Origin: an uncultured Ignavibacteriales bacterium
GTDB lineage: Bacteria > Zixibacteria > MSB-5A5 > GN15 > FEB-12
Length of the DNA stretch: 64,000 nt
Assembly (NCBI GenBank): GCA_964397415.1
Contig: CAYNIJ010000001.1
Coordinates: 522,345 to 586,344 of the forward strand
Direction: 5' to 3'
The notes below the pieces were generated by a model. It saw only the letters and a program-made list of their open reading frames with translations. It ran no database searches and was not told where the DNA came from. Of the stretch, positions 24,343 to 47,130 are shown in pieces. Position 1 is the stretch's first letter, and every line of letters begins with the position of its first letter. Made by a program: the position numbers and the translations under genes.

Positions 24343-24415
<73 letters not shown>

Positions 24416-24426
24416 CTTTTTTTTCG

Positions 24427-24498
<72 letters not shown>

Positions 24499-29285: not shown

Positions 29286-31256
29286 TTATTGTTCGTTCTG
29301 GACCACCCGGAGGACGGCGGAGTAGGCACGATCCTGCTCGAGCCGCGACAGTTGCTCCTGGGTAGCCGTTTCTTTGAATTTGTCGTAGCTCTTCTTGACG
29401 TTCTTCAGGTCATCGTCCCCGAAGTAGCAGAGCATGAGATATTGATAGATCACCGGATCGTTCGGGTCTTCAGATCGGGCATCCTTGAGATGCTTGATTG
29501 CTTGTTTATAGTTTCCCTGGGCGAAGCGGGCCTCACCGAGACCAAAGTGGGCTCGGGCCGAGCGTTTGTCAACTTTGAGGACAGCTTCGTAATCCGCGAT
29601 CGCCGCAATCTCTTCCTGACGAGCCATATGCAGTCCGGCGCGTCCCAGGAGCGCGGGGACTGAGTTGGGCATCATCTTCACCGCGTTATTGAACGCGGTC
29701 ATTGAAGTGCCGTACTCGCCGTTGATGCGGAAGATCTCAGCGGCACGAAGGTAATCATCGTGGGCGTCGGTGCGACGGGATGCCAGCGTATAGGCTTCCG
29801 CGCGGCTCAGATACGCCGCGGTATAGTTCGGGTGGGTCTCAAGAATAGACGAGAGTGCGGCGATGGCGCCATCGACATTGCCGGAGCGCAAGGTACCGAC
29901 CGCCAGATTGTACTGGCCTTCAAGAGAGATTACAGCAACGTTGTCGGTCGGGGTAAGAGCGACCTCAAGCGTGACTATTGCGTCAGAAGGGACATTGACC
30001 GTTCCAGAGGCAGTCTGGTATCCTTCTTTGGAAACAGTATATGAGCGCTGACCTGAAGCAATGCGGTTAAAGGTGAGATTTCCGGCCCCAATTACTGTGC
30101 CATCGATCGTCAACCGCGCTCCATCGACATTTGCCGCGAGCGCGACCTTACCGAAATCGGATTTCTTCGCTGTACTGCCCGGCTGGATCGGTCGCTGGAG
30201 ATTTTCATTGTGAGGAACGGCGGCCGGTCTACTGTCGTCGTAAGCCTGATTGTAGTCTTGCGGTTGGTCAGGACTGACAGAGGGGAGATTCTCAACAGAC
30301 GCAAGTTCGCCGGGGAACAGAGTCATGGTGGTCAGGTCGCCCGCGGTGACTGTCGCATAGTCAACTTTGATGGTCTGCCCATTGACCACGTATTCGACTC
30401 GATGCGTACCGGGGTTAAGACCGCTGACGCGGAAAAATCCTTCACCGTTGGCGGTGGCGGATTTGCCGCTTTCGGGGAGACGGATGGTAGCGCCTTCGAT
30501 GAAGGGCTGATGATTCTCGTCCAGAGCGACGCCGACGATCTCACCTTGCCCATTGTGAGTATCGCGAACCAACATTGGGACGAAGATCGCCAGGAGCACG
30601 AGGAACGCCGCGCCCGCGACTATGCCGTAGGTCTTGGTATCCAGCCGCTTTTTGCGGAGGAGGTAAGGGCGGTCATTGACGATTATCTCGTCGTTCTCAT
30701 GCAGATCCACCTCGCCATGGATCTGGATGTAATTCTTCATGAAGTAAGCGAGACCACGTCCCCGTTTGGCCGCGACGGGCTTGTGCAAGTCCGCCGGCTG
30801 AGGACCATGAGCGATATGTGCTTTGGGGACCGGGTCGCCTTCGATCTTCCTGAGGGCGGCCTGTTTGTCGGCCTCTGAGAGATACTTCTCTTTGGAGTAG
30901 AGCTTCTTCTCGATAGACTCGAGTTCTTTCTCAGACAATCTGCGCAGTTTCTGTGTGTCGCTGACCTCGGCCTGCGCCGGTTTGGCTACCGGTGCAATAG
31001 GAATGGGTTGAGTGACTGGCCCGTCATCCTTTTGTCCTTCCAACCATTCCGCGCTAGACTGTACGCCGAGCGTGTCTTTGGCCGGTCGTGCGGTATAGGA
31101 TCCGGCATCGTCGTCTTTGCTATCGTGCGCTTCGGAAACGGTGAATTCGAGGGCGTCATCATCCTTGGGCGTGGGCTTGAGAGTCACGCCGCAATGTTCA
31201 CAGAACTCCGTGCTGTCAAACAGGATTTCCGTCTTGCAGTTTGGGCATCGCTTCAA
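29286..31256 (-). CDS. Zinc-ribbon / TM / carboxypeptidase-regulatory-like / PEGA / TPR protein
   Basis: CPNC..CEHC; TM helix; GVALDENHQPFIEGATI..GFF; ANVDGARLTIDG..VSKEGYQ (PEGA); C-terminal TPRs. Confidence 0.8.
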   Translation of the reverse strand: MKRCPNCKTEILFDSTEFCEHCGVTLKPTPKDDDALEFTVSEAHDSKDDDAGSYTARPAKDTLGVQSSAEWLEGQKDDGPVTQPIPIAPVAKPAQAEVSDTQKLRRLSEKELESIEKKLYSKEKYLSEADKQAALRKIEGDPVPKAHIAHGPQPADLHKPVAAKRGRGLAYFMKNYIQIHGEVDLHENDEIIVNDRPYLLRKKRLDTKTYGIVAGAAFLVLLAIFVPMLVRDTHNGQGEIVGVALDENHQPFIEGATIRLPESGKSATANGEGFFRVSGLNPGTHRVEYVVNGQTIKVDYATVTAGDLTTMTLFPGELASVENLPSVSPDQPQDYNQAYDDSRPAAVPHNENLQRPIQPGSTAKKSDFGKVALAANVDGARLTIDGTVIGAGNLTFNRIASGQRSYTVSKEGYQTASGTVNVPSDAIVTLEVALTPTDNVAVISLEGQYNLAVGTLRSGNVDGAIAALSSILETHPNYTAAYLSRAEAYTLASRRTDAHDDYLRAAEIFRINGEYGTSMTAFNNAVKMMPNSVPALLGRAGLHMARQEEIAAIADYEAVLKVDKRSARAHFGLGEARFAQGNYKQAIKHLKDARSEDPNDPVIYQYLMLCYFGDDDLKNVKKSYDKFKETATQEQLSRLEQDRAYSAVLRVVQNEQ

Positions 31257-31296: not shown

Positions 31297-31323
31297 TTAT
31301 CGACCTTCGGGGAGATTTCTTTA
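31297..31323 (-). promoter_or_regulatory. sigma28-type promoter candidate for the TPR/PEGA - two-CW operon
   Basis: TAAA-N15-GTCGATAA, ~40 nt upstream of the start codon. Confidence 0.65.
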
Positions 31324-31475: not shown

Positions 31476-32873
31476 ATGCTAAGGCGTATTAAATGCTTGC
31501 CTGTATTGCTCTTAGCTGGCTTGGTCGCTATGATGGCGGTTGGCTGTTCTCAGGATGAGGATATTGTCAGTCCGGTATCTACGACTGAACTAACCCTGTC
31601 GGCGCTTCGGTTGCCGACTCCGCCGCCTGGCATGATGTACGAATTGTGGGCTGCCGGCTCCGATGACACGGTATCCTTGGGGAAGTTCTCCTACGATCCT
31701 GAGGTGCAGAAATTCCTGGACGCGTCCGGGAACGAGCGCGATGCCGTATTCATTTTCAGCGGTGATCTGTTTGATTACAATTCGGTATTTGTGTCGGTCG
31801 AAGTGGATCCCGATGACAATTTGGCCAAGCATGGCCCAATCATGCTCATCGACGACGTCAGCGATCCGGCCAATTCACCGTTCCAGTTGGTATTCCCGCT
31901 CTCCGATTCATTGTGGGAGGGTTACGCCCGCTTCAATATGGAGGGGGTCTCCGATCGCAATCGAAATGACAATGATGGGAACGGACTCTGGTTCTCTCGA
32001 TATAGCCAGACGTTTTACACCACCCCGGATACATTCGCGATCTCGATCGCTGAAGATACAGTCTGGGACAGCACGGGAACCGATTCCGTGGAGTTCATAG
32101 TCGGAATCGAGGATATCGAAACAACGCTGGTGTCAGTGGAAGCGGACACTGGATTTTGGCGGAACGGAATGATCTGGTTGGGTAATCAGCCGCTGATGCA
32201 TCACGGGTTGAGCTATCGATTCGTATTGCAGAAGGTGGCGCCGCCGTACCTGGTGGTCAGAAAGACGCCGACGTTCACAACCGGTGTCAGAAATGATCTG
32301 ATCGATTATTTCACTCAGGATTATAGCGCCCTTCCGGATTACACCCCGTGGGGTTGGAAATACAAGGGTTGGGTAGTGCTGTCACACTACAACTCAGTTC
32401 CCATGACCACGCGTTGGAGAATGACTCCGCCGGCGTGGCGATACAAAGCCGCGACATTCAACTGGATCCCCGGTGATACAGGAGTGCTCTTCACTACAGG
32501 TACCTTTGCCACTATCGATTCACCGGATGACGCCAATCCTTACAAACTGGATGGGCCGATTCCGCCGTTCCCGGGAGAGGATTTCCTTAACGAGGCCGCC
32601 ATGCAGGCGGCGTTTGGGATCAGCACGGTTGAATTGATGCCGAATGCTACCGGTAACGTAGGGACTGTGTTCATTTCACTGGAGCCGGAGAATGCGGTTT
32701 CCGATACGACGAACTTCCCGCTATTGCTGATGACAGAGCCGTTGCCGAACAGTCGGTCGACTATCACGGCCAACACCGTGCAGGTGGCGATGACGAACCG
32801 GTCCGGGACTGTCGACAGTGATCCTCTGGCGCCGGGTTTCCCGCAGATCAGTGTGGCCCTAAAGAGGTACTAA
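31476..32873 (+). CDS. Lipoprotein with two RskA-C-like (anti-sigma-K-like) motifs
   Basis: Lipobox AVGC; LPTPPPGMMYELW..SLGKF and LPDYTPWGWKYKGWVV..TGTF..PPFPGEDFL; GGAGG RBS. Confidence 0.65.
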   Translation: MLRRIKCLPVLLLAGLVAMMAVGCSQDEDIVSPVSTTELTLSALRLPTPPPGMMYELWAAGSDDTVSLGKFSYDPEVQKFLDASGNERDAVFIFSGDLFDYNSVFVSVEVDPDDNLAKHGPIMLIDDVSDPANSPFQLVFPLSDSLWEGYARFNMEGVSDRNRNDNDGNGLWFSRYSQTFYTTPDTFAISIAEDTVWDSTGTDSVEFIVGIEDIETTLVSVEADTGFWRNGMIWLGNQPLMHHGLSYRFVLQKVAPPYLVVRKTPTFTTGVRNDLIDYFTQDYSALPDYTPWGWKYKGWVVLSHYNSVPMTTRWRMTPPAWRYKAATFNWIPGDTGVLFTTGTFATIDSPDDANPYKLDGPIPPFPGEDFLNEAAMQAAFGISTVELMPNATGNVGTVFISLEPENAVSDTTNFPLLLMTEPLPNSRSTITANTVQVAMTNRSGTVDSDPLAPGFPQISVALKRY

Positions 32874-32902
32874 TCGGCGTTAGAATAGACTGTTTGGTCT
32901 TT

Positions 32903-32933
32903 GAGAGCCTGTCGATGACAGGCTCTTTTTTTT
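32903..32933 (+). terminator. Intrinsic terminator
   Basis: AGAGCCTGTC-GAT-GACAGGCTCT + T-tract. Confidence 0.88.
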
Positions 32934-33098
32934 GGCGCCCAACAGGGAGAAAGTGCGCACAGAGGGGGAAAGGGATGCAAACAATTTGCAGGTGACAGGC
33001 GTACTGGTTGGGGCACGGCCAGTTACACGTGGGAGAAACGCGCTATAATTCATTGCATTATCTGACATTGGGGTGTATATTTTATCCACATCTGCCAG

Positions 33099-33114
33099 CG
33101 GCACAGCGCTTGCT
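33099..33114 (+). promoter_or_regulatory. sigma54 -24/-12 promoter candidate with upstream activator-like palindrome
   Basis: CGGCAC-N5-TTGCT; TGCAAA-CAA-TTTGCA at 32976-32990; IHF-like TAATTCATTGCAT at 33046. Confidence 0.7.
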
Positions 33115-33124
33115 TGGTTCCTAT

Positions 33125-33256
33125 CTGTGAGAATGCGTCTACTGTTCCCTTATGTGAATTCTCGCCACGTGTAAATAAGGGAGTGGTGAGCGCTGGTTCG
33201 CCAGCCACCTGACGTTAGAGTCGGGCATCCCCCCTCCACCACTCCCTCTTTTTTTT
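33125..33256 (+). ncRNA. Candidate sigma54-driven small RNA or attenuator leader
   Basis: AGGGAGTGGTG/CACCACTCCCT closing stem + T8; GCTGG-TTCG-CCAGC and CCTGAC..GTCGGG hairpins; unpaired ATCCCCCCTC. Confidence 0.6.
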
Positions 33257-33293
33257 CTTTTTCTCAGTATTACCGCTGTTCGAGCTCCAACCG

Positions 33294-33320
33294 TAAACCT
33301 TTCCGTGAAACTGTCGATAC
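33294..33320 (+). promoter_or_regulatory. sigma28-type promoter candidate for the histidine kinase
   Basis: TAAA-N15-GTCGATAC. Confidence 0.55.
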
Positions 33321-33330
33321 CACATCAAGT

Positions 33331-35322
33331 ATGTGGTTTTTCCCGAGACCAAAATTCCGGTCGACAGGCGGTGGTGACAACGTCCTGCGTACCGGATTTC
33401 TCGCCCGACTCGGCAATTTGATCGTGCTGCAGGCGATCTTTGTCTTTGTGGCCATAGCGCTGATCCTCTTTTATCCCGGGCCGTCACGTGAGCACTCCGA
33501 AACAAGCGGGCCGATTCACGCTCTGGTACAGGACCTCGGACATCGACTGCTTGAGCAATATTTGAACAGTGTGTCGACCACCGGGGGAACTTCCTCGGGG
33601 ACGCTTCGAGAGGAGATCCAGTTGAGTGGCGAGGGGATCACCTCAGCCTCACTTTACCTGGTAAGAAGTGATGGAGTGGTGGAGTGTCTGCATTCACAGG
33701 CGTCACAGTTGCCGACCGCGGAGAGCTATGAGTTTTCCGAGGGGATCTCAACCATTCGCGAGGGATTGATCCGTCAGGCCGCCGCTGAATCGCCGGGATT
33801 CTATCTCACGAATATCGTAAACGATGTGGAAAAGAATATCTACTATCGCCCCCTGGGAACTGACCTGCCAGTAGTCCTGGTGGCGGGAGTGAACCACGAT
33901 CTGCTTATTTCCAGCAAAACAGATCTTCAGTATGCGTTGTTGCTCCTCTTCCTGGTGACCGTGCTGTTGTCGCTAATGACCATTTATCTCATTTGGAAGC
34001 GATTCCGTCAGCCGCTGGTTCATCTGATCAAGAGACTGGAAAAGACCGCCGATGGCGAGCTCTACTACCAGTTAGAGACGGAGGGCGATATTGAACTAAA
34101 TGTCCTCAGCAGTAGTTTCAATCGCCTGACCAAGACGCTGTGGTCGAATCAGCAAGAGATGAAAACCTACAACAACCGCTTGCGGGAGATCAACGCGTCG
34201 CTACTGCAGTCACGCTTGTTCCTGGCGACCCTTATCGACAGTTCGCCGTCTGCCATCGTCGTAACGTCTCGCGACGGCCAGATAATCATATTCAATCGCG
34301 AGGCAGCCAAGGTGTTCGGATATTCGTCCGACCAAGCGCTGGGGAAGAATGTGTCCGAGTTGTTCAAACAGCCGGTTGACATGAAGATCGCCGACGAGAG
34401 CGAAAAGCCGGGGTTTGAGGCGATCAGTCTGCGGGCCGATGGCTCGGCGTTCCCAGTCTGGGTAACGATGACGCCATCGCGTTCGGATGAAGGAGAGATC
34501 TGGGCGTTCGTATATATCATCCACGACATCACCGAGTCGACCAGTTTCCAGGAGATGATGATCCGTCTCGACCGTTATTCCACGCGCGGCGAGATGGCCG
34601 GGGATATCGCGCACGAGATAAACAACTATCTTGCGGTGCTATCAGGCAATCTGGAGTTGTTCCCAATCCTCCTGAAGAAGGGGGATCCGGAAAAGATCGA
34701 GAAGAAGCTCGAGTTGATGCGCAGCACGGTCGACCGTGTGGCACGATTCGCGGACGGCCTGATGGATACCAATCGGGATGAGGCGACACCCGAACCGACC
34801 AGCCTGAACCAGGTGGTTGAGAATGTGCTCGCTTTCCTGAAGCCGCAGAACAAATTCGACTCGGTGGAGTTCAATACGCGACTTTCTTCTGAACTGCCGC
34901 TCATCGGCCTGGACCCGGGTCAGGTCCAGCAATTGATGGTCAATCTGGTGAATAATGCCACTGACGCCGCGATCACTCTTGGTGTGAAGCCGCAGATACG
35001 GATCACCACTCAATTGGTGAAAGAGGCCGGAAAGTCCTTTGCCCGGGTCGAGGTCGCGGACAATGGCGCGGGTGTGCCCGAAGAGAAGGTCGAAGCGCTC
35101 TTCAACCGCCGCTTCACAACAAAGCGCAAGGGGCACGGCATCGGCCTGGTCACATGCAAACGGATCATGGATGCCCACCAGGGGAGTATCAGCTACCACT
35201 CAGACTCGGGCGCGGTTTTTACCTGCACATTCCCCTATGAACGAACGGCCGTTGCTGAAGACGTCTCCGGGCCAGCGGGTTCATCTCAGCCGACACCATC
35301 TTCTCCTCTGGTTCACGCCTAA
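33331..35322 (+). CDS. Membrane sensor histidine kinase (HAMP, PAS, HisKA, HATPase); start uncertain
   Basis: 2 TM helices, HAMP, PAS (IFNREAAKVFGY), DIAHEINN, NLVNNA, DNGAG, FTTK..GHGIGL. Confidence 0.93.
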   Translation: MWFFPRPKFRSTGGGDNVLRTGFLARLGNLIVLQAIFVFVAIALILFYPGPSREHSETSGPIHALVQDLGHRLLEQYLNSVSTTGGTSSGTLREEIQLSGEGITSASLYLVRSDGVVECLHSQASQLPTAESYEFSEGISTIREGLIRQAAAESPGFYLTNIVNDVEKNIYYRPLGTDLPVVLVAGVNHDLLISSKTDLQYALLLLFLVTVLLSLMTIYLIWKRFRQPLVHLIKRLEKTADGELYYQLETEGDIELNVLSSSFNRLTKTLWSNQQEMKTYNNRLREINASLLQSRLFLATLIDSSPSAIVVTSRDGQIIIFNREAAKVFGYSSDQALGKNVSELFKQPVDMKIADESEKPGFEAISLRADGSAFPVWVTMTPSRSDEGEIWAFVYIIHDITESTSFQEMMIRLDRYSTRGEMAGDIAHEINNYLAVLSGNLELFPILLKKGDPEKIEKKLELMRSTVDRVARFADGLMDTNRDEATPEPTSLNQVVENVLAFLKPQNKFDSVEFNTRLSSELPLIGLDPGQVQQLMVNLVNNATDAAITLGVKPQIRITTQLVKEAGKSFARVEVADNGAGVPEEKVEALFNRRFTTKRKGHGIGLVTCKRIMDAHQGSISYHSDSGAVFTCTFPYERTAVAEDVSGPAGSSQPTPSSPLVHA

Positions 35323-35364: not shown

Positions 35365-37380
35365 ATGAGTCAGAATCGGGATATTCAGTCTCGACTGGAC
35401 CAACGCTCCACGGTCGTGATCATTGTCGCACTGGCCGTTGTGGTGTTGATCTTCACCTGGATAAGTACTAGTCAGAGCCGAAAAGACAGCTTCCAACTGC
35501 TGGTGCGGCAGGGAGCGGCTTTTACGACGTCGCTCGCGGAGGCATCACGGAACGCTATCGAAGCGGAACGATTCTACGACCGTCTGGTGCAACGTCGGTA
35601 CGGGGATCTGGTGACAACTTTGCTGGGGAATCGACAGCATACCTCCAATCAGGGATTACACGAGTTTGTACGGGACCACGATCTGCTGGGAGTCTGGCTC
35701 TACGAGCGGGATAGCACCGGGACAATCAGGTCTGAAGCCGGTTCTGCCAAGATACAACTGCCAGAGTTCGTGAGGCTGGAGGCGGACACGCTGGCGCTGT
35801 CTCAGGTTCCGCAGTTTGTGCAGCTTCTCGATGAACAGGAGGAGCGGGGAGAGATCGCGCTCTACTATATCCAATTGACCGACAGTCTGAATCGCGTCAT
35901 TATCTTGGCTGTGGACGGTAAGTCTTATCAGGCGGCTCTCGAACAAACGGGGATCGGGTACCTATCGCAGCGCATGGCTCGTGAAGAGGGGGTGGAGTAC
36001 ATAATCTATCAGGCAACAGACGGGATCATCTTCGCGTCCCGCAAGCCAGGCGAATTGCTCGCGATAGAGTCTGATCCGTTCCTGCAAGATGCCCTCAAGT
36101 CAGATACGACGTGCAATCGCATATTCGAATTCCAGGGAGAAGATGTACTTGAGCTGGTGCATCCATTCTCGACCGCCGATTATCCTCAAGGAGTGTTTCG
36201 GGTTGGACTATCTCTCCGCGGATACTACTCCGTCTCGCGTGGCTTTGATTGGCAGATGATCGTACTCTCGGTTGTCCTGTTCGGGCTGGTGATCACGGCT
36301 ATTCTATATCTCAACAGTCGGAGAAAACGCCGAGCGATATCTCTGGAATATTCGCAGATAAAGTCACTGACCGATCGAATATTCGAGCAGATGGAGACCG
36401 GGGTGGCGGTGATCGGCCGGAATGGAATTGTGCAATTTGCGAACCGTGCGATTGAACGGGCGCTTGGTGGAAGTAATGTGGTAGGGCGGTCATGGGAAGT
36501 TGTGGCTGGTGATCCTCGTCTCGCAGGGATAGCCGGTGTCGACCAAACAAAGGGTGAGACAGAGGTTTCTCTCGTGCAAGGGAAAGAGCCGCGCACGCTA
36601 CTGGTAGCATGGTCGAGAGTTGAATTTGAGGAGCGAAATGATGCCGCCACCGTGCTGGTGGTATATGATGTGACGAAAATCCGGCAGTTCGAGCAGGATG
36701 CTTTTCGCCGCGAAAGGCTCTCTGAAATGGGGAATCTTGCGGCGGGGGTGGCGCATGAGATACGGAATCCGCTCAATACCATCTCGATCGCATCGCAACG
36801 TCTGGCGACGGAGTTTACTCCAAGTGAACGGCAAGAGGAATTCAAACAGTTCACGCAGTCAATTCGAAATGAAACCAAGCGTCTCAATGACATTATCACT
36901 CGGTTTCTCGCGCTTGCTCGTGCAGAAAAGAAGCGGTATCAGCGAGTCGACCTGAAAGAGACTGTTGAGGCCAGTCTTGCACTGGCCGAAGTAGAGGCAT
37001 CGCGGCTGGGGATATCCATTTCGATAGACGTACCTGCTGAGATCGCAGTGGAAGCCGATCCGGATGCTCTCAAGCAAGTGTTCATCAATTTGTTCAATAA
37101 TGCCAAGGAAGCTGCCGGTGGAAGACAACTTCAGATACGGATAGCGGCGGAGAGACGTGAGAAGCAGATAGTGATCCGGTTCTCGGATAACGGACCAGGC
37201 ATCCCGCCAGAGTTGCGCGAGAGGATATTCACGCCGTACTTCACGACCAAAGAGGCGGGGACGGGACTCGGCTTGCCAACCGTTTACAAGATCATTTCAG
37301 AAGCCGGGGGAGAGATACGCGTCGACAGCGACTTTGCCGGCGGTGCGCAGTTTGAGATCATCCTTCCTTTATTGCCATAA
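35365..37380 (+). CDS. Membrane sensor histidine kinase (PAS, NtrB-like HisKA)
   Basis: AAGVAHEIRNPL, NLFNNA, DNGPG, FTPYFTTKEAGTGLGL. Confidence 0.95.
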   Translation: MSQNRDIQSRLDQRSTVVIIVALAVVVLIFTWISTSQSRKDSFQLLVRQGAAFTTSLAEASRNAIEAERFYDRLVQRRYGDLVTTLLGNRQHTSNQGLHEFVRDHDLLGVWLYERDSTGTIRSEAGSAKIQLPEFVRLEADTLALSQVPQFVQLLDEQEERGEIALYYIQLTDSLNRVIILAVDGKSYQAALEQTGIGYLSQRMAREEGVEYIIYQATDGIIFASRKPGELLAIESDPFLQDALKSDTTCNRIFEFQGEDVLELVHPFSTADYPQGVFRVGLSLRGYYSVSRGFDWQMIVLSVVLFGLVITAILYLNSRRKRRAISLEYSQIKSLTDRIFEQMETGVAVIGRNGIVQFANRAIERALGGSNVVGRSWEVVAGDPRLAGIAGVDQTKGETEVSLVQGKEPRTLLVAWSRVEFEERNDAATVLVVYDVTKIRQFEQDAFRRERLSEMGNLAAGVAHEIRNPLNTISIASQRLATEFTPSERQEEFKQFTQSIRNETKRLNDIITRFLALARAEKKRYQRVDLKETVEASLALAEVEASRLGISISIDVPAEIAVEADPDALKQVFINLFNNAKEAAGGRQLQIRIAAERREKQIVIRFSDNGPGIPPELRERIFTPYFTTKEAGTGLGLPTVYKIISEAGGEIRVDSDFAGGAQFEIILPLLP

Positions 37381-43988: not shown

Positions 43989-44045
43989 TTGGCGATATTG
44001 ATTTTTCTGGCATCGGATTGGCCGATGTTCTTATATTTGTGCTGA

Positions 44046-44125
44046 TGGGGATGGAGTCCCCCGACAACCGCCTTTTCTTGGGCTGATGACTCCTGCGCTG
44101 TGAACGTATCGCCAGCAGGAGTTTT
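44046..44125 (+). promoter_or_regulatory. Fluoride (crcB) riboswitch with expression platform
   Basis: GGGGATGGAGTCCCCC..AACCGCC..GGCTGATGACTCCT matches the known motif; ACTCCTGC/GCAGGAGT stem + T4 covers the crcB SD. Confidence 0.93.
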
Positions 44126-44916: not shown

Positions 44917-47130
44917 TTACGGACAAGGCGGAAGCGGCGGTCGCGGAACCGTCGTTAGATACGCTATCAGCAGAGAAAGATCTGAAAGGTCTATCGCTCC
45001 AACTGCGTTTACATTGGCCTCACCGACGCACGGCAGAGCCGGTCGTGGAACCACCGTCAAGTAGCTAATGAGCAGAGAAAGATCTGAAAGGTCGGGAGTT
45101 TCAGATGGACTCTTGTTCACGTTACCGGTTGTGCCAATACAGCAACCAGGTGGAACGGACTGTCCACCCGTGATCACGAACGCAAGATCAAGCGAAGTCA
45201 GGAAGGATGGAGGAGTGCGAATCTCAGTCCAATCGGATCCCGCTCCCTGCCCTTGGTACATGCGAATGGTGCCGGTTGTGGAGCCAGACATTCCGCTGAA
45301 CGGACCGCCCGGTCTTCCGACGAAATCAATTCGATAAGTAATGTCAAAGAAACTGTCTACCTGCCAATCAGTAGTTGGTAGTCGAGTTAAAGTCGTATGG
45401 CCCGGGCTCGGCATACCGAAATTGGTTCCAGCCGTAATTCTCAACAGGTCGAAATCGGGATCACCAGTTATCTGTCCCTGCATTTGCGCGAAATCGGCTG
45501 GGAAGCTTTGCACCGCCGCGCCACCCCGAGGTCCCGTGTGTGTCTGGCATTGAAGTTGCATCATCAGGTTTCTCGAGTAGCCGGACATTGCCCCAGTGCC
45601 GGTCATCGGCATCTCAAGGAAGATATCGAAGAACTGGATATGGCCGCCAAGCGATCCTCCGGGTGCCTCAAGCATATTAAACATGTTGGTCATGCGAGCA
45701 GGGAAATCTACGGTTGAGCCTGGTGGCAGGCCATTCGAGAAGGACATCAGATTGCCGTAGCCATCAATGGGGCATTGTGCGGGGAGTGTTCCGGTAAAAG
45801 TCCCATTGTCGGGGGTGACACAGGGGGTGCCGACAACCGGCTGACGATAGGCTGCGTCGTCGTTATACTGTTGCAGCGAACTCTTCCATCCCCATCGTTT
45901 ACCCATCAATGAGTCGATCGGGTCAAGATTCGCTTTGACCACCAGCCAGTAGATCACCCCAGCAGTCTGTTGGAACCAATCGATCGAGTCGACCAGGATG
46001 TCATATTGATACCAGCGTCGATGGTTCGGGTGAATGAAGAAATTGGTTGAAGGATCAAACCATCCCTGGTTGTGCAGGTCCATTGGCGTCTTTACATACA
46101 AACTGTAGTCTTTCTCCCACAGTTTTGTCCCCGGATGACTCCACGGGAGAGTGATGCCTGCGGGCACATCGGACCAAATGGAGACCGTGAAAGATGGAAT
46201 ATAAGCGGTGTCATCGTTGAGCCATGAACCCCAGAAGTGGATATCCTTGATCGCACCGGTTTCAGTACACATGAAGTCGTCACCCATTTCGCGTGACGAT
46301 GTCGCGTAGACATCCCATCCGTTCGAATCGGGGAGCTGCGGATAATGCATTTTAAAGGTGTCGCCTGGATTCCAGAATGGTCCCCCCTGCAATAGATGGA
46401 GAGGGAAATCAGTCGTGGAACCGGACATGCCCGCAAACGGCCCACCCGGCGCGCCGATGAAGTCGATGCGGTACGTTATGTCAAAGAAGCTGTTGACGGC
46501 CCAATCCAGGGTGGGACGCCTGGCGAGGGTGGTTCGTCCGGGGCTCGGCATACCAAAGCTATTGCCGGCGGTGATCCTCAACAAGTCGAAATCTGGATCG
46601 CCCACGATCTGACCCTGCAGTTGCATCAGTTCGGTGACGAATATCTGTGGCGAAGTGCCCGGTGTGCGGGGGGCAGTGTGATATTGGCCGTTGAAAGGGA
46701 AGACCATCGTCCGGTTGTACGATGAGAACATGCCAGTCCCAGTGAGGATGAGATTCGCTGACGCGGTGAAATTGACGATCTCACCACCCAGGATTCCTCC
46801 GGGAAAAACCCCCATGGGGGTTAGGTTCATGGCGATGATCTCGATCTTGATCTCGGAACCGACCGGAAGACCACTCTGGATGTGAGCTGTGTCCTGGTGG
46901 GTGCGATAGGGACAGAGGGCGGGTAGTGTGATGGTTCCGCCGACATCAGGCGCCGCGCAGATGGTGGGAGTAGGCATGGCGGCTGATTGTTCTGGTAAAT
47001 CGAAGGGAAGAACGAATCCCGATCGATCGGGAGTGGCCGGATTTTCGGTCGCGGAGCTGCTCACGATGCACAACAGTGCGAACAGGAGCGCAATCGGAAA
47101 AGGTCGGGCCAATGCAAGGCGATGTCGCAT
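44917..47130 (-). CDS. Secreted modular protein with duplicated ~185 aa domain and C-terminal dockerin-like (DLSDL x2) module
   Basis: Signal peptide; two GDPDFDLLRITAG..FGMPSPG..SFFDITYRIDF repeats; CCIGTTGNVN..DLSDLSLLISYL..C..EANVN..IDLSDLSLLIAYL..CP. Confidence 0.8.
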   Translation of the reverse strand: MRHRLALARPFPIALLFALLCIVSSSATENPATPDRSGFVLPFDLPEQSAAMPTPTICAAPDVGGTITLPALCPYRTHQDTAHIQSGLPVGSEIKIEIIAMNLTPMGVFPGGILGGEIVNFTASANLILTGTGMFSSYNRTMVFPFNGQYHTAPRTPGTSPQIFVTELMQLQGQIVGDPDFDLLRITAGNSFGMPSPGRTTLARRPTLDWAVNSFFDITYRIDFIGAPGGPFAGMSGSTTDFPLHLLQGGPFWNPGDTFKMHYPQLPDSNGWDVYATSSREMGDDFMCTETGAIKDIHFWGSWLNDDTAYIPSFTVSIWSDVPAGITLPWSHPGTKLWEKDYSLYVKTPMDLHNQGWFDPSTNFFIHPNHRRWYQYDILVDSIDWFQQTAGVIYWLVVKANLDPIDSLMGKRWGWKSSLQQYNDDAAYRQPVVGTPCVTPDNGTFTGTLPAQCPIDGYGNLMSFSNGLPPGSTVDFPARMTNMFNMLEAPGGSLGGHIQFFDIFLEMPMTGTGAMSGYSRNLMMQLQCQTHTGPRGGAAVQSFPADFAQMQGQITGDPDFDLLRITAGTNFGMPSPGHTTLTRLPTTDWQVDSFFDITYRIDFVGRPGGPFSGMSGSTTGTIRMYQGQGAGSDWTEIRTPPSFLTSLDLAFVITGGQSVPPGCCIGTTGNVNKSPSETPDLSDLSLLISYLTVVPRPALPCVGEANVNAVGAIDLSDLSLLIAYLTTVPRPPLPPCP

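Follow-up and report, generated by a model that had tools for sequence, protein, structure and literature searches.

The locus

The DNA analysed here is a stretch of 64,000 nt (the window) from a Zixibacteria genome deposited as an uncultured Ignavibacteriales bacterium (assembly GCA_964397415.1, contig CAYNIJ010000001.1, positions 522,345 to 586,344, forward strand); the genome, labelled G000, is 99.4% complete. Ahead of two consecutive genes for sensor histidine kinases, the window contains about 130 nt in which the open reading frame (ORF) list shows no credible ORF. An earlier note on this DNA had placed here an orphan structured RNA with a sigma-54 promoter, and each element that it listed, from the activator-like palindrome and the sigma-54 box to the closing stem, the UUCG hairpin, the second hairpin and the terminal U8, was found in its place when the sequence was read directly, as was the lack of coding capacity. 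The RNA is real; it represents a new family, well supported, within a class that is already familiar, that of the sigma-54 small RNAs. The features of the locus, all on the plus strand, are as follows.

32976-32990 (+): palindrome TGCAAA-CAA-TTTGCA, putative upstream activator-type site, 124 nt 5′ of the sigma-54 box
33046-33058 (+): TAATTCATTGCAT, formerly described as an “IHF-like” site, containing the −35 region of a sigma-70-type promoter
33053-33081 (+): sigma-70-type promoter TTGCAT (33053-33058)-N17-TATATT (33076-33081), predicted start ~33088-33090
33099-33114 (+): sigma-54 (−24/−12) promoter CGGCAC-AGCGC-TTGCT, with GG at 33100-01 and GC at 33112-13, predicted start ~33124-33126
33125-33177 (+): 5′ leader, A/U-rich and variable
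33178-33247 (+): conserved core, a three-way junction
33178-33188 with 33237-33247 (+): closing helix of 11 bp, A33178-G33188 with C33237-U33247
33192-33205 (+): hairpin 1, GCUGG-UUCG-CCAGC
33208-33225 (+): hairpin 2, CCUGAC-GUUAGA-GUCGGG
33226-33236 (+): unpaired C-rich run CAUCCCCCCUC, candidate seed or recognition site
33249-33256 (+): T8/U8 tract, forming with the closing helix a predicted intrinsic terminator
33294-33320 (+): FliA/sigma-28-type promoter of the kinase operon, TAAA-N15-GTCGATAC
33320-33341 (+): hairpin CCACAU-CAAGU-AUGUGG followed by U5, overlapping the kinase start codon (ATG at 33331)
33331-35322 (+): sensor histidine kinase HK1, with Pfam domains HAMP-PAS-HisKA-HATPase
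35365-37380 (+): sensor histidine kinase HK2

Spread and conservation of the RNA

Rfam 15 holds no family for this RNA, whether the whole window was searched at gathering thresholds or positions 32850-33400 at E <= 10. On the plus strand, no family matched the core at E <= 10, and the best scores within 32850-33400 did not exceed 18.3 bits, which is chance level when compared with gathering scores of at least 40. A BLAST search with positions 33090-33265 yielded a match in 51 of 61 genomes (60 relatives and the genome itself), distributed as 35/36 in family f1, 9/9 in f4, 6/10 in f3 and 0/5 in f2; outside the genus, the alignment was confined to the 3′ 80 nt of the query, at 80-95% identity. 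An exact 39-nt core pattern was found in 63 public contigs, nearly all of which carry Zixibacteria or GN15 in their titles. The minority are titled as Ignavibacteriales, Calditrichota or FCB-group metagenome-assembled genomes, and several of these are identical to loci in the window's own order. A degenerate version of the pattern recovered at least 119 stretches among the matches listed, with titles that are again almost all Zixibacteria.

Across 67 non-redundant core sequences, a set biased by having been partly chosen by the exact pattern, 52 columns are invariant, while the protein encoded by the downstream kinase gene is only 35-50% identical among loci. The covariance model R1, built from these 67 cores and run on a phylum-wide sample of 151 Zixibacteria genomes, matches 127 of them. 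By family, the matches are f1 53/54, f3 8/10, f4 14/15, f5 12/13, f6 3/3, f8 4/5, f9 5/5, f10 2/2, f11 4/4, f12 2/3, f13 2/2, f14 6/6, f16 8/8, f18 2/2 and f19 1/1; R1 finds the RNA in none of the genomes of f2 (0/3), f7 (0/11), f15 (0/2) and f17 (0/1).

Some genomes carry extra copies of the RNA, which are unlinked to kinases. The window genome itself has a second, diverged copy of the core outside the window, at C2:54918-55000 on the minus strand (loci L032/L127/L130), scoring 87.6 bits. Its closing-helix changes are compensated; it has neither a U-tract nor a sigma-54 box, and lies inside about 800 nt free of ORFs, behind a long conserved hairpin, GUCCGUGAAGCGACUGG...CCAGUCGCGGAUCGGAC, with a repeated palindromic promoter-like block on either side. 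Similar second copies occur in G002, with the hairpin and the flanking block, and in G004, with the hairpin alone, and G031 has a second copy in another context. The second-copy loci have no Rfam match at E <= 0.1, and the copy at C2:54918-55000 may be part of a larger RNA of an as yet undescribed type.

In the literature we found no description of small RNAs or of sigma-54 in Zixibacteria, a phylum of which, to our knowledge, no member has been cultured. The RNA family merits an Rfam entry, which would improve the annotation of hundreds of metagenome-assembled genomes.

Secondary structure and covariation

The segment 33122-33262 (141 nt) folds with a free energy of −45.8 kcal/mol (z = −4.08), and none of 200 shuffled sequences did as well. 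A wider alignment, to which 40 diverged members were added, allowed a covariation test of the three-way junction. It should be kept in mind that this alignment was fitted to the model and thus favours structure; in it, 97.8% of cells are paired, vs 87.2% in shuffles. Changes on both sides are found in 12 of 22 pairs, vs 6.7 +/- 1.3 in shuffles, and not one of 500 shuffles reached 12; the covariation score is 0.264, vs 0.103 in shuffles and at most 0.039 with the partners slid along the sequence. The covarying pairs fall in helix 2 (5/5), helix 3 (4/6) and the closing helix (3/11). One of the inner hairpins passes through the compensatory series GCUG/CAGC, GUUG/CAAC, GCCG/CGGC and CCAUG/CAUGG, and the other through CCUGAC/GUCGGG, CCCCGA/UCGGGG and CCCUGA/UCAGGG, while the base pair beneath the closing helix is AU in 42 cases, UA in 10, CG in two and GC in two.

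The outer elements are fixed, with GGGAG-N-GGUG on the 5′ side and CCCCC(C)UCC-R-CC-N-CUCCC on the 3′ side, and are kept even in f3, where one hairpin stands in for the two inner ones. The C-rich run CAUCCCCCCUC is unpaired both in the minimum free energy fold and in the consensus fold, and CCCCC(C)UCC is kept in almost all of 47 aligned sequences, including those with replaced inner hairpins. The invariant part of the RNA thus consists of the unpaired CCCCCCUCC run and the closing helix, and the run, to which the earlier note had drawn attention as an unpaired element, proved to be the most conserved part of the molecule.

The 5′ leader, in contrast to the core, varies from 25 to 55 nt across 62 loci, with a mean z of −0.23. 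A conserved hairpin was looked for in these 62 leaders and not found, although the motif GAGUUGUUAGAGAU is common to many of them. Hence the 5′ hairpin of the earlier fold is not a family feature, while its closing stem, UUCG hairpin, second hairpin and unpaired run all belong to the junction supported by covariation.

A T-rich tail, defined as six or more T among the 10 nt that follow the core, is found in 65/71 near relatives and in 18/40 diverged loci. Several of the diverged loci without a U-tract have a separate terminator hairpin or a small ORF instead, and the presence of a separate terminator in several diverged families indicates that the fixed helix is not kept merely as a terminator. 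We also considered a terminator/antiterminator switch, in which GGUG would pair with a proximal CACC or a distal CCACC. Locus L032 has compensating changes in both partners; the switch was rejected, because distant families have not kept the proximal partner.

Promoters and sigma factors

In 80 of 94 instances, a sigma-54 box of the form GG[CT]A[CT]-N5-TTGC lies 49-79 nt 5′ of the core, and no such box was seen at any other position in the 300 nt searched. The box is missing from 14 instances: three of these lie at the end of a contig, two carry GGCAA where the pattern has GGCAY, two belong to the second copies, and the last seven rows are L021/L056/L065/L079/L080, which make up three distinct loci after deduplication, L057 and L025. 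In these seven, the sole promoter-like element is of the sigma-70 type, TTGCCA-N17-TATATT, about 100 nt upstream. In the diverged loci, the box is found 38-69 nt upstream of the core in 32/40 cases, and the f3 loci, read by eye, have GG-N10-GC variants, GGCCT/GGTCC-N5-TTGC. Promoter and stems are therefore both kept in relatives. The weight rests on this conservation, since a single match to the pattern proves nothing: [CT]GG[CT]A[CT]N5TTGC[AT] occurs 24 times in the genome, vs about 26 times expected with equal base frequencies. One of the 24, a chance-level number, is also in the window, TGGCAT-N5-TTGCA at ~45545-45560 on the plus strand (G000:C1:567889).

A second promoter accompanies the first. 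The 70 nt 5′ of the sigma-54 box contain the sequence TTGNNN-N16-18-TANNNT in 35/61 loci, compared with 5/61 control windows, and the spacing from the end of this element to the GG of the sigma-54 box is either 17-18 or 36-39 nt (18 nt in the window). The proposed IHF-like site TAATTCATTGCAT is better read as the −35 region of this conserved sigma-70-type promoter, with the −35 hexamer of which it coincides.

Farther upstream, at 124-177 nt 5′ of the sigma-54 box, TGCR-N6/7-YGCA or TGCR-N16-18-TGCA is found in 37/60 loci and in none of 60 control windows, and the palindrome in the window appears to be the local form of this conserved putative upstream site. Among the loci that have no sigma-54 box, it was present in none of the three clade loci, in 230 nt searched, and L057 has one loose match. 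The genome has the machinery for such a promoter, since rpoN is present (DNA-binding domain, 195.5 bits) together with 15 Sigma54_activat matches, i.e. enhancer-binding proteins, at E <= 1.6e-59. The sigma-54 side of the earlier proposal, comprising the box, the palindrome and the presence of rpoN and activators, has thus held up. As for the cognate activator, six of the 15 have a kinase within 1.5 kb and nine do not, so that no single orphan stands out; the RNA locus itself contains no activator gene.

Transcripts over the locus

Parts of the stretch are contained in 13 RNA-type runs, four of which were analysed over the locus. One of these, X4, yielded no contig in spite of a word share of 0.21. 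The assembled contigs of the other three, X1-X3, are derived from three different metatranscriptome studies and come from close relatives, being 90-99% identical to the window. X1 (255 nt) covers window positions 33094-33344, X2 (249 nt) covers 33100-33347, and X3 (179 nt) covers 33098-33257, to which 19 nt of the relative's own sequence are joined. No contig covers 32800-33093 or 33348-33600, and the uncovered parts are no evidence of silence. All three contigs begin no more than 12 nt from the predicted sigma-70 start and include the sigma-54 box. They would thus represent transcripts of the upstream promoter, if not DNA carried over into the libraries, and speak neither for nor against starts at the sigma-54 promoter, the use of which is deduced from conservation.

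X1 and X2 end 3-6 nt after the hairpin and U5 at 33320-33341. This hairpin is found in the genus (L002-L004), and is missing from L005 and beyond; it can be viewed as a candidate back-up terminator for read-through transcripts. The predicted FliA-type start would fall within it.

The kinase pair and the independence of the RNA gene

The near set comprises 71 non-redundant loci, and in 62 of them the RNA is followed by a homologue of HK1 or HK2, beyond which there is usually a citrate synthase gene in convergent orientation; of the other nine, five have less than 700 nt of downstream sequence, two are second copies and two belong to a divergent subtype. The best NCBIfam matches of the two kinases are AtoS and ZraS, both below cut-off. 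Between the U-tract and the kinase gene there is a conserved motif, T[AC]AA-N15-G[CT]CGATA, as given by a matrix from the 59/71 loci in which a loose pattern detected it; five further loci have GACGATAA. The motif presumably represents a FliA/sigma-28 promoter, with the consensus of which it agrees. The strict motif is found 21 times in the genome, vs 3.5 expected, and a FliA/WhiG gene is present (263.8 bits vs a cut-off of 189.6), as is flhA. The kinase operon therefore appears to have the sigma-28-like promoter that had been proposed for it. Elsewhere in the genome, the motif precedes the genes encoding PilD, PilB, a PilT-like ATPase and one pilin-like protein, as well as PilZ, GGDEF, HDOD, MshEN/DUF4388, CheY-like receiver, sugar-nucleotide enzyme and TPR genes.

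Within the window, the motif is also found at 31297-31323 on the minus strand, before a TPR/PEGA gene (29286-31256, minus strand), and the genome has 19 sites besides this one and that of the kinase operon. In 11 of 20 cases no more than 27 nt separate the −10 box from the first candidate start codon, which suggests that genes with this motif have very short leaders.

The constant position before the kinases raises the question of whether the RNA is a cis-acting leader of their operon, i.e. a riboswitch or attenuator in which the junction decides on read-through past U8 into HK1-HK2. The strict synteny in the window's order speaks for such a role, as do X1 and X2, which bridge the terminator and the kinase start, and the combination of conserved junction nucleotides with covarying helices is riboswitch-like; moreover, ten f9 and f14 loci have a small ORF 16-38 nt behind the core, which is thus placed much like a 5′ untranslated region. 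The kinase, however, has its own conserved FliA-type promoter, and in orders other than that of the window the RNA is unlinked to it: the HK2 homologue and the RNA either do not share a contig or are separated by more than 100 kb, and the neighbours of the RNA are unrelated genes with no common class downstream, such as uvrC, YdjC, MutS2 and an M14 peptidase. The extra copies stand apart from kinases as well, the GGUG/CACC alternative (antiterminator) pairing is lost in distant families, and the closing helix does not vary in sequence as a typical aptamer closing stem would. We consider the leader role very unlikely. The varied neighbours in other orders indicate that the RNA is an independent gene, whose position before the kinases is a property of one order only, and this agrees with the earlier view of a structured non-coding RNA that has its own terminator and is independent of the kinase gene.

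A small ORF behind the core in two families

The ten f9/f14 loci with the small ORF (L145, L146, L149, L151-L155, L162 and L169) have a Shine-Dalgarno sequence and 34-37 codons directly after the core. The encoded peptide begins with MxSFNEDK.. or MIVVKEE.., has one hydrophobic C-terminal helix and shares a C-terminal ..AAIVLIP.. or ..AIVLIP.. ending. Beyond the ORF there is uvrC in three of four loci checked, and a PALP-type enzyme gene in L151, where the reading frame was read by eye. In these two families the RNA may be a dual-function RNA or the structured leader of a small membrane protein.

One could extend this arrangement to the whole family, by assuming that the ancestral unit consisted of the sigma-54 promoter, the structured leader and a membrane peptide of 34-37 aa, that the peptide was lost or moved elsewhere in the window genome, and that the C-run controls its ribosome-binding site in cis or in trans. 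The ribosome-binding sites of the small ORFs, GGGAG, AGGAG and GGAGG, are indeed complementary to the C-run, but CCUCC is complementary to any Shine-Dalgarno sequence. A tblastn search yielded no homologue of the peptide in the window genome, the best match being the signal peptide of a larger protein, although short hydrophobic queries are easily missed. Such an origin for the RNA in the window is, in our opinion, hardly likely at all.

Mode of action

The analyses themselves show the conserved promoter motifs, the fold, the phyletic distribution and the independence from the kinases, and the RNA is very probably an independent, sigma-54-regulated small RNA gene. Beyond that, the best explanation overall, which we regard as probable, is that a small regulatory RNA is encoded here by a gene of its own with tandem promoters, that its C-run pairs in trans and that the activator is fed by the kinases. 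Transcription would be driven by two promoters in tandem, one of the constitutive sigma-70 type (−10 at 33076-33081) and one dependent on sigma-54 (33099-33114), the latter needing an enhancer-binding protein on the TGCA..TGCA site (32976-32990) to open it. The predicted transcript, about 130 nt from the sigma-54 start or about 165 nt from the sigma-70 start, would comprise the variable A/U-rich leader and the almost invariant three-way junction, the closing helix of which, 11-12 bp long, would together with U8 also terminate transcription. The kinase pair would be transcribed apart from the RNA, from the FliA-type promoter, and the AtoS/ZraS-like kinases may feed one of the nine activators whose genes lack a neighbouring kinase gene. 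Since no PF17209 match was found in the 99.4%-complete genome, the RNA would act in trans independently of Hfq.

How it would do so is suggested by the invariant unpaired CCCCCCUCC, which contains CCUCC, the core of the anti-Shine-Dalgarno sequence; by pairing with G-rich ribosome-binding sites, it might block translation of target mRNAs. Shine-Dalgarno motifs are in use in this genome, being found upstream of 38% of first starts, vs 12% in a coding control, and among the genes of the window the best partner of the C-run is the ribosome-binding site of the upstream 465-aa gene, at −22.7 kcal/mol (in this genome alone). We put the anti-Shine-Dalgarno mechanism forward as a tentative proposal, about which some doubt is in order. 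The 465-aa gene itself (31476-32873, plus strand) has a weak RskA_C (anti-sigma-K C-terminal) match, 26.3 bits vs a cut-off of 29.4, and no match in NCBIfam.

Several observations weigh against this explanation as a whole. The metatranscriptome contigs, which cannot show ends, strand or abundance, begin at 33094-33100, upstream of the predicted sigma-54 start at ~33125, and no start is seen there. They also run past U8, X1 and X2 to the kinase start and X3 for 19 nt, indicating either that termination is incomplete or that overlapping transcripts were joined. The contigs cover the region of the sigma-54 transcript that had been predicted, ~33125-33256, and a sigma-54 start lying inside them would be masked. 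In 15 unlinked loci, no activator domain was found in the 5 kb around the RNA. The HK2 sensor domain is present in 150/151 genomes, including families without the RNA, so that there is no co-occurrence signal; the kinases can do without the RNA, and the link between them is positional only. As regards targets, the exact complement of the 12-nt C-run was found once outside the RNA gene, not at a start codon, and none of the 25 sites in the genome with at most one mismatch is convincing. A duplex ranking over 3931 start regions is topped by unrelated genes, namely an AHSA1-like gene, an M50 peptidase, an HD hydrolase, a decarboxylase, FtsX and an ABC ATPase. Finally, the paired helix GGGAGUGGUG/CCACCACUCCC is near-invariant, which is unusual for an RNA made up simply of a seed and a terminator, and fits a protein partner equally well.

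This last point keeps alive a model in which the RNA serves as a protein-binding decoy or sponge: a conserved protein would recognise the invariant closing helix and the C-run, and would be titrated or escorted by the RNA, in the way that GlmY binds RapZ and 6S RNA binds RNA polymerase. It would account for the invariance of 52 columns, paired ones among them, next to a protein that is so much less conserved, and for inner hairpins that covary freely or are replaced while helix and C-run stay unchanged; the lack of a convincing mRNA target in the genome-wide searches and of a recognisable Hfq would also be in keeping with it. No candidate partner protein is linked to the RNA, though, as its neighbours vary between orders, and any repeated motif is present in only one or two copies, unlike in sponges of the CsrB type. 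We therefore think of protein binding as rather unlikely, and retain the trans-acting regulatory RNA as the preferred explanation.

A more far-reaching version of the latter is suggested by the closing helix, which pairs a Shine-Dalgarno-like strand (GGGAG..) with an anti-Shine-Dalgarno-like one (..CUCCC), next to the free CCCCCCUCC run. The RNA could be a phylum-wide mimic of the anti-Shine-Dalgarno end of the ribosome which, when induced by a sigma-54 activator, competes with 30S subunits for strong G-rich sites and couples a signal sensed by the kinases to the FliA-type regulon. This is an improbable scenario; if true, Zixibacteria, as an uncultured phylum, would have a translational switch by which they change from a surface-attached to a motile way of life and back, since the regulon thus coupled includes type IV pilus, c-di-GMP and exopolysaccharide genes along with the neighbouring kinases.

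Comparison with known small RNAs

The nearest known arrangement is that of glmY before glrK. In Enterobacteriaceae, the GlmY/GlmZ system and glrK(qseE)-qseG-glrR(qseF) resemble the locus described here in that a small RNA gene lies directly 5′ of a sensor-kinase gene, and in having a sigma-54 promoter with upstream activator sites, which in the Zixibacteria RNA are putative. Depending on the species, glmY and glmZ are transcribed from sigma-54 only, from sigma-54 and sigma-70, or from sigma-70 only, according to PMC3045617, and the same three promoter states are found among loci of the Zixibacteria RNA. The two contigs that read through to the kinase start can likewise be compared with Proteus, where glmY is reported to be co-transcribed with the kinase genes (PMC8745638).

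There is, however, no homology between them, as the GlmY_tke1 and GlmZ_SraJ models of Rfam 15 are not matched. Instead of being superimposed, the promoters in Zixibacteria follow one another in tandem at a distance of 18 or 36-39 nt; the locus contains neither a response regulator nor an activator, its operon ending instead at the convergent citrate synthase gene; and the kinases have a FliA-type promoter, with no RapZ-type logic known. The locus shows that the layout of glmY and kinase genes known from enterobacteria, in which sigma-54 and sigma-70 promoters replace one another, has come about independently in distant bacteria.

Other small RNAs induced by an enhancer-binding protein and sigma-54 are free-standing, such as Qrr1-5 of Vibrio (with LuxO), Pxr of Myxococcus, CrcZ of Pseudomonas (with CbrB) and NrsZ, some of them present in multiple copies. 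Their genes are usually located beside that of their activator, and Qrr requires Hfq, whereas the Zixibacteria RNA has no adjacent activator, has an unrelated fold and belongs to a genome in which Hfq was not found. With respect to the C-run, there is a similarity to the C-rich-loop small RNAs of the RsaE/RoxS type from Firmicutes, in which an unpaired run of C is complementary to G-rich Shine-Dalgarno regions and for which Hfq-free action has been proposed. In the Zixibacteria RNA, the run is instead part of a three-way junction whose fold doubles as the terminator, and there is no Rfam homology.

The interest of the RNA lies in its extreme conservation together with its promoter logic: a core that is nearly unchanged in 127/151 genomes, combined with three kinds of promoter logic, offers a testable entry into regulation in Zixibacteria.

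Other features of the window

Two tRNA genes are located side by side at 24343-24415 and 24427-24498 on the plus strand, with Rfam tRNA scores of 69.6 and 67.5 bits, and a fluoride riboswitch (crcB motif) is present at 44038-44102, also on the plus strand, scoring 54.3 bits vs a gathering score of 34.

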